In this document: in pieces, positions 11,463 through 17,799 of the stretch | Numbering within the stretch: position 1 is the first letter of the stretch | Layout of the letters: every line of letters starts with the position of its first letter | Source of the DNA: Candidatus Nomurabacteria bacterium | GTDB lineage: Bacteria; Patescibacteriota; Patescibacteriia; HK-STAS-PATE-3 | NCBI GenBank assembly: GCA_023898465.1 | Contig: CP060223.1 | Span: forward strand, 32,001 to 96,000 | DNA: 64,000 bases | Direction: 5' to 3' | The notes under the pieces: generated by a model | What the model was told of the DNA's origin: nothing | Databases searched by the model: none | The model's input: only the letters and a program-made list of their open reading frames with translations | Position numbers and translations under genes: made by a program

Positions 11463-12122
11463 CTATTTTAGGGCCTGAAGCACATCTTGCAAATCGAGCA
11501 ATTGGAGCTCCTCACCATATATTTTTCGCTGCACATCAGTGGCATATCCCGAGGCAGCAAAAGAGATAGCTCGAGGGATTTTTTGGGCAATGAGGCTCTG
11601 ATAAAGCTCATTCAGGTCTTGTCGCGTGACTGTTTTTCCCTTTGGAGCACAGTAGACCGGCACCTTTCCTTTATTTGTAGCGAGGAAGAAGTCAGGTGAG
11701 GGCGATGCAGAGGATTGTGGGCTGGGAAGTATTTGAAAACCCTGTTGTGTAAAGAATTTTTGTAGCTCCTTTATCTGTTGGACATCATTCACTTGTTGCC
11801 AAAAGTAAGTTTGCGAGACTTGCTCTTGCTTAACTTCCTTTTGTTGGAGCTCTTTCTCTACTTTATTTGTTCGCCAGGCAGGAGAGAAAAGTCCGAGAAT
11901 TCTTTTTATTTCTCCAATTTGGTAGACAGCCATGTAAAGTCCGATGAGACCACCTGCCATACCAAAGAGGAAAAGGGAAATAGCAATGTTACGGAAGGTG
12001 AAGCCGGCAAAGAGGAGGAGTACCAGCGCCACGAGGATACCAAAGGTCACTCCGGCGATGACGGTCTGGGTGGGGAGGTGGGCTTCTCTTTGCTCCATTC
12101 TTTTTTTGTCGTCCATATGCAT
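11463..12122 (-). CDS. membrane-anchored protein with a C-terminal restriction-endonuclease-like (Mrr_cat / PD-(D/E)xK) domain
   Basis: Two N-terminal TM helices, a coiled-coil Q/K/E stretch, then GFQILPS...DFFLATNKGKVPVYCAPKGKTVTRQDLNELYQSLIAQKIPRAISFAASGYATDVQRKIYGEELQLLDLQDV. This resembles the Mrr catalytic-core pattern (D...(E/Q)xK...T.s.ft..A...A....i.LiDg..L). Confidence 0.4.
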   Translation of the reverse strand: MHMDDKKRMEQREAHLPTQTVIAGVTFGILVALVLLLFAGFTFRNIAISLFLFGMAGGLIGLYMAVYQIGEIKRILGLFSPAWRTNKVEKELQQKEVKQEQVSQTYFWQQVNDVQQIKELQKFFTQQGFQILPSPQSSASPSPDFFLATNKGKVPVYCAPKGKTVTRQDLNELYQSLIAQKIPRAISFAASGYATDVQRKIYGEELQLLDLQDVLQALK

Positions 12123-14849: not shown

Positions 14850-15179
14850 TTATTTTTCCGGAAGTGTTTGTACAAAGCTTAATCCTTGCTCCACCCAGTA
14901 CTCAAGCTGCTTTTTTGTCTTTATTCCCTTAGGTTTAATATTGAGCACGCCCCTCATTGGCCTGCCGGTGAAAAGCATTTCCTGAGCGTGTTTGTGTTTC
15001 AGTAGCTCCGGGTATTTTTCTTTCCCTACTCGGACGACCAGTTTATCTTTGATAATTCCGCAGCATAAATTACCGTTTACCATAATAACCAAACCACCGA
15101 ACATTTTTCGTTCATCAACGTGCGGTACGGTAATAAAAATTTTGTAGAGACGTTCTGCGAGTTTCTCGTCGTAGGCCAT
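14850..15179 (-). CDS. TfoX N-terminal domain protein (competence regulator-like)
   Basis: MAYDEKLAERLYKIF...ERKMFGGLVIMVNGNLCCGIIKDKLVVRV matches the TfoX_N signature. Confidence 0.75.
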   Translation of the reverse strand: MAYDEKLAERLYKIFITVPHVDERKMFGGLVIMVNGNLCCGIIKDKLVVRVGKEKYPELLKHKHAQEMLFTGRPMRGVLNIKPKGIKTKKQLEYWVEQGLSFVQTLPEK

Positions 15180-15337
15180 TATTTTAATTGTACTCCAAAA
15201 TAACGTTTACCGCAGCCATTTTATTAAGTCCAGATTCTTGTCATTATTCTTTCCGTCGGCAAGTTTTGAGTGTTTTTTATGCTAGCTCCCTACTCGATTT
15301 AGGCGATAGGTGAAAAATCTAGCCCGGGGGGTAGAGA

Positions 15338-15466
15338 ATGCAGAAAGTGAAGGTGGAGGGCTTTGTCCGACGGGAGCCGCGCAAGGTGGAGTTGGTCCCA
15401 GGTCAGATAGCTGTGGTACTAGAAAATGGAAGAGGTGGAAAGTTTAGCCTAGCTGTATTAGAGTAG
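15338..15466 (+). CDS. possible 42-aa small ORF directly upstream of the PIN-like gene
   Basis: ggggg precedes the ATG. Product is MQKVKVEGFVRREPRKVELVPGQIAVVLENGRGGKFSLAVLE, which is non-repetitive and GC-rich. It could instead be non-coding. Confidence 0.25.
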   Translation: MQKVKVEGFVRREPRKVELVPGQIAVVLENGRGGKFSLAVLE

Positions 15467-15497
15467 GATTAATAACACCTTGATAAGATAAAGTACA

Positions 15498-16487
15498 ATG
15501 AATATAATACTAGATTCGAATGTGCTGAAGGATAATTATTATCTCAATACACCGAGATTTCAAGCCCTGTTTAGCTATCTAAAAAAAACAAAATCAGAGT
15601 GTTTCATTCCTGAAATAGTAATTTTAGAAACGATAAAAAATTATAAAAGAGATACTGAAGAATACAACAGTATTGTTGATTCCCTAAAGAAGACTAATAG
15701 AGTTTTAGGTCTTAATGGTCCGAACCTTGAAATTAATATGAGCGATATTGTAAATAAGTATGAGCGAAGTATTTATAAAATAATAAAAAAAGTTGGAATA
15801 AAACTAATTCCGACTAAAGACTTGTCAATTTCAATTGATTCAGTTATTTCTCGATCGTTAAATGATATCCCGCCATTTTATAGATCAGGTAGATCAAGTG
15901 ATGTAGGATTTCGAGACTATATAGTTTGGGAGACTGTAAAATTTGTTAATAAAGACTTCGAAGGTAATCTGTGCTTTATATCGAACGATAAAAAAGCATT
16001 CGGACAAAGTTGTGAGTTATTTAGTAGATTAAAAAATGAATCCAACGTTCACTTTTATAACCTATTGGATGAGTTTTTAAATGAATATGCAGAAAAAATT
16101 AATTTTATTAGTGAAGAATACTTGGAGGACTACTTTCGTGAAGTTTTAGAAGATGAAATCCCTAATGTGGTGACTCTTAGCGAGCTACTAGCGACGAAAC
16201 CTGAGAATGAATATATAGATCCTTCTGACATAACTGACTATGAGTTTGATGAAATATCTATTTTGGATTTTTACGTTTATAATGCGACAACAAAATACTA
16301 TTACGTTTTCGTAAGGACAGACTTAATAGTAAGAGCTTATTATCTAAATAGATTAATGCTAGCGGCCGGACTTGATGATGAAGTATCTTCCGATTATTCT
16401 TTTTTAAGGTTCAAGAAATCCTTTTTACTAAGAATTGATAGAAGAACTAAAAGACCAGATCGTTTTCAAAATCATACTAGCAATTAA
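15498..16487 (+). CDS. PIN-like domain protein, 329 aa, in an AT-rich island
   Basis: N-terminus MNIILDSNVL...FIPEIVILET fits a PIN-type acidic core. The remainder is unrecognised. Composition is strongly AT-rich and K/N/I/Y-rich relative to its neighbours. Confidence 0.5.
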   Translation: MNIILDSNVLKDNYYLNTPRFQALFSYLKKTKSECFIPEIVILETIKNYKRDTEEYNSIVDSLKKTNRVLGLNGPNLEINMSDIVNKYERSIYKIIKKVGIKLIPTKDLSISIDSVISRSLNDIPPFYRSGRSSDVGFRDYIVWETVKFVNKDFEGNLCFISNDKKAFGQSCELFSRLKNESNVHFYNLLDEFLNEYAEKINFISEEYLEDYFREVLEDEIPNVVTLSELLATKPENEYIDPSDITDYEFDEISILDFYVYNATTKYYYVFVRTDLIVRAYYLNRLMLAAGLDDEVSSDYSFLRFKKSFLLRIDRRTKRPDRFQNHTSN

Positions 16488-16744
16488 ACTTCTAAGTCCG
16501 CTTGGAAAAACTAGATTTATTTTAAATTATCAACAACCTTATCTATTACGGCCCTTCTTTTCGCTTGCCCATCCAGAGGTCAATAAGGTTTTTCGCATAC
16601 TTAGGTCAAGTTGTCTCACTAACGGGGAGTTTTTTAATGCTTCTTTCATGCTGCGAATGGCAAATAGTATAGCAAATACAATATTGACCAGTACGTTTTT
16701 CTCTGGTATTCTTCCGAGCTGTAACTGAACTTGCACAATAGCGT

Positions 16745-16820
16745 GGTGGCTATAGCACAGTGGTTAGTGCACCGGGTTGTGGTCCCGGTGACATGGGTTC
16801 GAATCCCATTAGCCACCCCA
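16745..16820 (+). tRNA. tRNA-His (anticodon GUG) with encoded G-1 and CCA
   Basis: G-GUGGCUA-UA-GCAC-AGUGGUUA-GUGC-A-CCGGG-UUGUGGU-CCCGG-UGAC-AUGGG-UUCGAAU-CCCAU-UAGCCAC-C-CCA. Confidence 0.85.
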
Positions 16821-16845
16821 GTGTTGTGCAGGTGATGCGAAGACT

Positions 16846-17799
16846 TTATTCGTCTTCGTCTTTTTCATCCCTCCGCCGGCCATGAAAGGCTTTGTACACT
16901 TCACGTAGCTGCGCATTAGTAACGTGGGTGTATATTTGCGTGGTCGTAATAGAGGAGTGGCCGAGCAATTCCTGCACAGAGCGAATATCAGCACCATTCA
17001 TTAGCAGGTCAGTAGCAAAGCTGTGCCGCAGGGTATGCGGTGTAATCTTTTTCGTAATCCCGGCAATCGCGGCGTAGCGCTGCACCATCCGTTGGATAGA
17101 GCGGGGCGTAAGTGGACTGACTTCCTCGCCTTGTATCTCATCACTTTTTCCAGCAGCTCGATCATGTCGGACAAACAGCGCATCGTTGCCGTCGCGCCGC
17201 ATCTGCAGGTAGTGTCGGATCGCCTGCTTCGCTTGTTCAGAAATAAATACCAGTCGGACTTTGCCGCCTTTACCCTTGACCGAGAATTCATCCTTTTCCA
17301 GGTTGAGACTGTTGCGCTGCAGTTTCGCTAACTCGGAAATACGTAATCCCGTTGAGAAGAGTGTTTCGAGAATTGCTCGGTCGCGTTGCTTCACGATGTC
17401 GCTGCTTGGACTTTTATATGGAGCTTGCAAGAGTTGCTCCAAATCCTCTGAATCAAGGAAGTTGACAGAGCGCTGCGACTGTTTCATTAGCTCAATTTTT
17501 TCTGGAGCTAGTGAAGCAATATCGTGTCGCGATAGATATTTCAAAAATGAACGCAGGGCAATGAGGTGGTAGTTTTGCGTTGAGGCTTTAAGAGTTTCAC
17601 TATCTTTACCGAGCAGGCGATTCAACTTCAAACGAAAAGAGCGCACATTCGCCTCGGTAATATCCTTAGGAGTTTTTACTCCGCTCAGCTCAAAAAAGCG
17701 CGTGAGATAAAAATCATAATTGCGGACAGTGAGTTGACTCCGTCCACGCTCGATTTCGAGATACTCAAGAAATTCAGTTTTTAGCTTTTGCAGATCCAC
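16846..17799 (-). CDS. tyrosine site-specific recombinase, XerC/XerD family
   Basis: 317 aa with an N-terminal SAM-like domain (LEYLEIERGRSQLTVRNY) and a C-terminal catalytic domain (HTLRHSFATDLLMNGADIRSVQELLGHSSITTTQIYTHV). Confidence 0.85.
   Translation of the reverse strand: MDLQKLKTEFLEYLEIERGRSQLTVRNYDFYLTRFFELSGVKTPKDITEANVRSFRLKLNRLLGKDSETLKASTQNYHLIALRSFLKYLSRHDIASLAPEKIELMKQSQRSVNFLDSEDLEQLLQAPYKSPSSDIVKQRDRAILETLFSTGLRISELAKLQRNSLNLEKDEFSVKGKGGKVRLVFISEQAKQAIRHYLQMRRDGNDALFVRHDRAAGKSDEIQGEEVSPLTPRSIQRMVQRYAAIAGITKKITPHTLRHSFATDLLMNGADIRSVQELLGHSSITTTQIYTHVTNAQLREVYKAFHGRRRDEKDEDE

Follow-up and report, generated by a model that had tools for sequence, protein, structure and literature searches.

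An AT-rich PIN_12 (DUF4935) gene beside tRNA-His in Candidatus Nomurabacteria: a probable one-gene acquisition with a possible role in defence

The subject of this study is a gene found in a 64-kb window of the Candidatus Nomurabacteria contig CP060223.1 (the window is the whole stretch of DNA analysed, and all coordinates are window positions unless a locus is named). The gene occupies positions 15498-16487 on the plus strand, starts with ATG and encodes a protein of 329 aa. Judging from its sequence, this protein is a member of the PIN_12 family (PF16289, formerly DUF4935) with an intact acidic active site, and its gene is very probably an accessory gene that was acquired horizontally. The explanation that we favour, with modest confidence, is that the acquired gene specifies a stand-alone nuclease, made of a PIN_12 and an NTF2-like domain, which would act as a single-protein defence of the type represented by Cosus; as to the defence or abortive-infection function taken by itself, which is proposed by analogy, we consider the question evenly balanced. 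Four other explanations, weighed below, all appear less likely than the stand-alone defence nuclease. Both the family and the role that it probably plays had been described before, and no paradigm is changed.

The family assignment comes from a Pfam profile search, in which residues 3-168 matched PF16289 over its full length (positions 1-172 of 172), scoring 76 bits (cutoff 32; E 6e-21); weaker matches to PIN_8 and PIN ranked behind it. An earlier reading of the same DNA, made from the letters alone (hereafter the sequence-only reading), had noted the PIN-like N-terminus and guessed that the protein would belong to DUF4935, which proved right. No NCBIfam model matched the 329-aa protein, PHROGs returned just one weak and partial match to a family of unknown function, and a profile search of the PDB sequences gave no match. 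When 1.84 billion cluster representatives were searched exhaustively with HMMER, 1,077 relatives reached E<=1e-3; of these, 163 reached E<=1e-10 and only 6 reached E<=1e-30. The majority have a length of 320-380 aa, and many align past residue 270 (up to 270-320). Seven residues are invariant in a 40-sequence alignment of homologues, namely D6, E44, P126, D140, W144, F168 and F193, so that the catalytic residues D6, E44 and D140 are conserved throughout; the lack of such conservation, which the sequence-only reading had named as a ground for rejection, is not seen. The fourth acidic residue is D164, within a conserved ISND motif; in other subfamilies it is located at N..DFG.

The AlphaFold2 model built from the 40-homologue alignment (pLDDT 92, pTM 0.83) predicts two domains: a VapC-like PIN nuclease domain at the N-terminus (residues ~1-200), the fold of which is nearest to the VapC toxins, and an NTF2/VirB8-like alpha+beta domain at the C-terminus (residues ~200-329, nt 16095-16484). 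A Foldseek comparison with the PDB agreed with the modelled fold, and no solved chain was found to span both domains. The typical uses of the NTF2-like fold are ligand or protein binding and oligomerization.

The public record of this protein lacks part of its active site. The NCBI entry (P0001, 'DUF4935 domain-containing protein') is 321 aa long and begins with MLKDN at the GTG codon at 15522; the first 8 codons (MNIILDSN, positions 15498-15521 on the plus strand), which include that of the catalytic Asp6, are left out. Because the homologues keep the N-terminus MNIILD[ST], at the level of the protein and of the corresponding DNA, the start is placed at the ATG at 15498, which is also where the 329-aa gene call of Logan begins. 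The annotated start is thus 8 codons too late, at the cost of the catalytic aspartate.

The base composition of the gene sets it apart from its surroundings, as the sequence-only reading had seen. Its GC content is 0.301, whereas segments of 990 nt from the rest of the 64 kb have 0.480 ± 0.039 (overall z = -4.0), and it forms the lowest-GC point across the whole 64 kb. Its GC content at third codon positions (GC3) is 0.24, versus 0.32-0.55 in 16 other genes of the window. Such a dip is far beyond chance. On a 100-nt GC profile it appears as an AT-rich block (GC ~0.30, no strand assigned) extending from ~15450 to ~16540. It comprises the coding sequence and about 50 nt on each side, which is probably as far as the acquired DNA reaches. 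Both junctions of the block are 100% identical in two independent public assemblies, the Logan contigs L030 (35 kb) and L031; the insert is therefore not an assembly chimera and, because the two contigs are identical to the window, they give no population variation.

The distribution of related sequences also points to an accessory gene. The best homologue was at most 44% identical in any database searched, and in a 5.8-billion-cluster collection the matches were the 329-aa protein itself and a single 42%-identical protein from another Patescibacterium. Plasmids yielded only distant, PIN-only matches (20-26% identity). Orthologues of the Xer-type recombinase that is encoded next to the insert (42-69% identity) were found in 16 Patescibacteria loci, none of which encodes a PIN_12 protein at that place; PIN_12 is thus not a core gene at this position, and elsewhere its positions vary. 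Its absence from the Xer locus is clear in these relatives, but since all 16 are distant the gain is undated. One might suppose that the protein is a housekeeping nuclease of RNA processing or decay, engaged for example in the maturation of tRNA or rRNA, and functionally placed by the neighbouring tRNA-His. This is unlikely given that the protein is a singleton without any closer orthologue, that PIN_12 is missing beside Xer/tRNA-His in the 16 relatives, that its GC3 is unlike that of all the other window genes examined, and that the genomic position differs in each genome, some members even being inside restriction-modification (R-M) operons.

The sequence-only reading had described the gene as lying beside tRNA-His, with a tyrosine recombinase gene following 25 nt past the tRNA, and had judged the recombinase to be of the Xer rather than of the phage integrase type; it was correct on each count. 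The tRNA-His(GTG) gene (16745-16820, plus strand) was found with ARAGORN and Rfam (71.9 bits, called 16746-16820), carries its G-1 at position 16745 and encodes its CCA. The recombinase gene (16846-17799) is on the minus strand, which that reading had left unstated: it is convergent with the tRNA gene and its stop codon is 25 nt past it. The recombinase scored 235 bits with the XerA-type model NF040815 (cutoff 220), 257 bits with XerC and 245 bits with XerD, both below their equivalog cutoffs, and 134 bits with the integron-integrase model, well below the cutoff of 265. By these scores and by the 16 orthologous loci, it is classified as a conserved Xer core gene, situated outside the insert. 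When the Xer orthologues of at least 55% identity are considered, tRNA-His(GTG) follows xer closely in 8 of the 9 loci, usually after tRNA-Arg(TCT), and the ninth is truncated; the Xer/tRNA-His adjacency is therefore ancestral synteny.

Nothing around the AT-rich block suggests integration into the tRNA gene. The PIN gene stands on the 5' side of tRNA-His. The 3' end of the tRNA has no second copy in the 64 kb (even if 3 mismatches are allowed in 25 nt), apart from one chance-level 16-nt match 31 kb away. The direct and inverted repeats flanking the block are short, chance-level matches only, and no stable hairpin, attC-like or other, was found in the 261 nt downstream of the PIN gene (folded as single-stranded DNA, z +0.97). 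We concluded that tRNA-His is a native neighbour and not an integration site, and that the 329-aa gene is a one-gene insertion and not a tRNA-integrated island. The caution of the sequence-only reading, which had seen neither a classic island boundary nor a second copy of the 3' end of tRNA-His, was thus justified within the 64-kb window. Its broader suggestion of tRNA-adjacent defence cargo found support in part: a defence role is plausible, by inference from Cosus and from 3 of 10 homologue contexts, whereas a significance of the adjacency to the tRNA is not supported, given the 5' position and the ancestral synteny.

The same reading had put forward the 42-aa open reading frame (ORF) upstream of the gene (15338-15466, plus strand) as a partner in an antitoxin-like position, and there it failed. 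The ORF lies in intergenic DNA of host composition (GC 0.51), beyond the AT-rich block; it has no match in Pfam, NCBIfam, PADLOC or PHROGs, and its database homologues are identical copies only. The PIN_12 homologues begin 20-40 nt after unrelated genes (a 368-aa gene, a TnsA-like gene, gyrA) or ~100 nt after Mod; no conserved small ORF is present upstream of them and several have no space for one. The 42-aa ORF is no partner to the PIN protein and probably not a gene. A type II VapBC-like toxin having this ORF as its antitoxin might be argued for from the nearness of the PIN fold to the VapC toxins, and from the small same-strand ORF ending 31 nt upstream of the PIN gene. It is nevertheless extremely improbable: apart from what has just been said of the ORF and of the homologues, the protein has 329 aa and a fused second domain, as against ~130 aa for VapC toxins, and its family is described as monocistronic (PMC5499597).

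Two other features of this upstream stretch were looked at. A structured RNA at the 42-aa ORF was rejected, there being no Rfam match (E<=1) and fold z values of -0.08 and +0.42. The G-rich DNA that separates the PIN gene from the TfoX_N gene also contains three copies of AGGTGGA within 89 nt (15351-15439, plus strand, with starts at 15351, 15384 and 15433). This motif occurs 19 times in the window against 7.9 expected, and is not conserved upstream of the PIN_12 homologues, where GGTGG-rich tracts are present in only 4 of 10 loci.

The contexts of the homologues were compared in ten independent loci, the window and L001, L023, L025, L028, L029, L032, L033, L034 and L036. Whatever the GC content of the host (0.33-0.56), the PIN_12 gene was found 6 to 21 GC points under its flanks in all ten (mean -14), and its GC3 was low too. 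There is no neighbour gene common to the ten loci, nor do they share a junction, promoter, target or flanking motif. Three of them (L029, L023 and L001) have a defence-like context. In L029 (AMFJ01002259.1, 5991-11759), the gene of the homologue P0009 (31% identity) is flanked by those of type III Mod (E 2e-204) and of Res (E 2e-285), in an element which also carries TerL, a tyrosine integrase, and DUF4365, DUF4357 and NERD proteins. In L023, the PIN_12 gene comes directly after weakly type III Res-like genes (E ~5e-5) and a TnsA-like nuclease gene. Taken together, L029 and L023 make a recurrent association of PIN_12 with type III R-M possible. In L001, which harbours the closest homologue (P0002), the gene adjoins MazG and a 368-aa gene, with a defence-type reverse transcriptase ~1.8 kb off. 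In L036, the PIN_12 gene and a 441-aa gene of unidentified nature overlap; L025 is too short for a context call.

Two of the L001 neighbours may be described here for their own sake. The 368-aa protein (8874-9980 of L001) is unannotated and has no Pfam or PADLOC match; a PD-(D/E)xK-like motif, 'FLFEVKS', was recognized by eye. The reverse transcriptase (12769-14085 of L001) has 438 aa and matches PADLOC models of the RT/UG17 type (E 8e-64 and 4e-40).

Two of the competing explanations bear directly on these contexts. The gene could be an orphaned R-M accessory, that is, a nuclease or regulator of type III Mod/Res now stranded without its partners and having little or no function here, as the position between mod and res in L029 and that right after the weakly Res-like genes in L023 would suggest. 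We find this improbable, because R-M genes are present in only two of the ten contexts, because most members are solitary, as is Cosus, which works alone, and because the ORF is intact with all the invariant residues in place. Alternatively, it could be a selfish, homing-like nuclease gene that lands by highly conserved genes, or else a neutral remnant nearing loss; a sharp-edged, single-gene AT-rich insert devoid of integrase, transposase and repeats would fit, and so would relatives beside gyrA, rpsJ, purA and tRNA-His. Yet most neighbours in small genomes of the candidate phyla radiation (CPR) are conserved in any case, the junctions of the ten loci display no common target or flanking motif, and VapC-group PIN domains are RNases and not known homing DNA endonucleases (PMC5499597). 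Decay, for its part, is at odds with a full-length ORF and an intact active site. Both variants are, in our view, highly improbable.

The favoured explanation, an acquired and self-sufficient PIN_12-NTF2-like nuclease with a defence function, takes its model from Brc24 'Cosus', an integron cassette coding for a single PIN12-domain protein which confers complete resistance to phage T7; most of this resistance is gone in the T12A, D14A and D96A mutants, and some Cosus homologues also lack attC (bioRxiv 10.1101/2024.07.02.601719, 2025 preprint). The Brc24 sequence that we used is approximate: it was rebuilt by hand from the optical character recognition text of Table S3, which contained frameshifts, by stitching the frames together with the mutagenesis primers as a guide. 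So rebuilt, the protein has 384 aa and matches PF16289 end to end (112 bits, residues 11-180), and an extension of ~200 aa follows. Its alignment with the CPR subfamily, subject to the same approximation, is weak but collinear over ~190 columns, which take in the PIN core as well as the motifs PF...F(R/P)D and (I/V)S(N/Q)D.

On this model the PIN domain of the window protein would cleave RNA, of the host or of the phage, once infection is sensed. The NTF2-like domain would take the place of an antitoxin by providing sensing, autoinhibition, gating or oligomerization, and it is such gating or assembly by the C-terminal domain that would allow a toxin-like nuclease to do without an antitoxin. 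The NTF2/VirB8-like model of the C-terminal domain suggests a role in sensing or in oligomerization; Cosus, for its part, is predicted to form a hexamer. We infer the nuclease activity, the RNA substrate, the sensing or autoinhibition by the C-terminal domain and the defence phenotype; what was observed here is the family, the fold, the catalytic residues, the foreign composition, the absence from syntenic loci, the lack of a partner gene and the existence of relatives linked to R-M or reverse transcriptase genes. A bolder version can be formulated, which we regard as doubtful: PIN_12-NTF2 proteins would constitute a widespread, self-contained sensor-effector immunity, in which the cone senses a phage product and frees a VapC-like RNase; they would spread as naked, AT-rich single genes beside core genes by a route so far undescribed (no integrase, transposase, repeats or attC), and would sometimes be recruited to type III R-M operons as a second line of defence.

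Several points weigh against a defence function. The first is that, for this protein as for any CPR member, the function is proposed by analogy, and the link to Cosus is a distant one: the rebuilt and approximate Brc24 sequence scored weakly against the hidden Markov model of the CPR subfamily (12.9 bits; hhalign probability 38%, E 3e-4). No PADLOC-DB 2.0 (2023) model matched the 329-aa protein or its homologues. A direct phage link is lacking too, with zero tblastn matches in 50,697 phage records and zero in IMG/VR. As to context, the surroundings of the gene in the window do not form a defence island, the neighbouring genes showing only generic helicase and cyclic nucleotide (cNMP)-domain similarities, and most of the seven remaining loci consist, like the window, of a solitary PIN_12 gene amid housekeeping genes (gyrA, rpsJ, purA, bipA). 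Housekeeping neighbourhoods are to be expected in small CPR genomes, where most neighbours are conserved genes, and they lend no positive support to defence. Lastly, the family-wide AT-richness could in part be intrinsic to the gene family rather than the mark of a recent transfer.

CPR bacteria (Patescibacteria) have very small genomes and few recognized defence systems. If the stand-alone defence explanation is true, a one-gene, Cosus-like nuclease would be a cheap form of immunity for such genomes. What the present analysis adds to the record is the NTF2/VirB8-like model of the C-terminal domain, the consistent AT-richness, the lack of a partner gene, the presence of some members in type III R-M operons and the correction of the annotated start.

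The genes and signals on either side of the insert are as follows. To the left, the native neighbour is a gene for a TfoX_N-domain protein (14850-15179, minus strand; PF04993, 51.8 bits; GC 0.42), divergent from the PIN gene. To the right, in DNA of host composition, there is a promoter-like sequence for the tRNA, TTGACC-17-TATTCT with an upstream TG (16684-16712). The spacer that separates the PIN gene from tRNA-His also holds an antisense ORF of 65 aa (16539-16736, minus strand); its GC content is 0.40, it matches no family, and it is probably not a gene. In related Patescibacteria (L004-L012) the order is xer, tRNA-Arg(TCT), tRNA-His(GTG), mostly on the xer strand. The window has no tRNA-Arg(TCT) at the Xer/tRNA-His spot, and its tRNA-His is on the strand opposite to xer, as in L009; the missing tRNA and the opposite strand indicate a local rearrangement.

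Two observations concern more remote parts of the window. A 219-aa protein encoded at 11463-12122 (minus strand) has a hydrophobic segment at its N-terminus, while its C-terminal part weakly matches Mrr_cat, a restriction endonuclease-like domain (E 0.0016, below the Pfam cutoff); PADLOC gave no match. Farther to the right, a run of very large ORFs (1100, 2840, 1178, 524, 1089, 427, 1057 and 1713 aa) occupies 23883-56318 on the plus strand, along which the GC skew alternates between positive and strongly negative blocks; they could encode surface proteins with repeats, or giant proteins, of a kind typical for CPR bacteria.

How does the PIN_12 gene compare with the systems already described? 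It has some features of a tRNA-linked island, being a gene of foreign composition beside a tRNA gene, with a tyrosine recombinase close by, and being absent from the 16 syntenic loci of distant relatives. It departs from that scheme in that it is 5' of the tRNA gene, that the tRNA 3' end is not repeated, that a single gene of ~1.1 kb is involved, and that the recombinase is a conserved Xer, the adjacency of which to tRNA-His is common to 8 relatives without the PIN gene. Unlike the VapC toxin of a VapBC pair, it has no antitoxin gene and is not bicistronic; the protein is 2.5 times larger than VapC, carries a helical insert ~40 residues long and has an NTF2-like domain fused to its PIN domain.

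With Cosus the resemblance is one of organization: both are single genes without a partner, with an N-terminal PF16289 domain and a long C-terminal extension, the likeness in this last respect being one of length. They differ in that Cosus is an attC-bearing integron cassette of Proteobacteria, whereas the window gene resides in a CPR host and has neither an attC-like hairpin nor an integron integrase. The anti-phage phenotype has been demonstrated for Cosus only and, because Cosus and the CPR protein belong to distant subfamilies, it can be carried over to the latter only as a hypothesis.

There is, finally, the DUF4935/PIN_12 family itself, which was classed in the VapC group as a family of unknown function with mostly monocistronic genes (PMC5499597). 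The window protein has its general size (~330-350 aa), the N-terminal VapC-group PIN domain with four acidic residues, the long helical insert after strand 2, the less conserved alpha/beta C-terminal region and the monocistronic organization. The 2017 account listed Actinobacteria, Bacteroidetes, Firmicutes and Proteobacteria as the taxa concerned, and could relate the C-terminal region to no known structure (Matelska et al. 2017, NAR, PMC5499597). The present protein differs from that description in belonging to a CPR/Patescibacteria subfamily, and in having a C-terminal region which is confidently modelled as an NTF2/VirB8-like domain.

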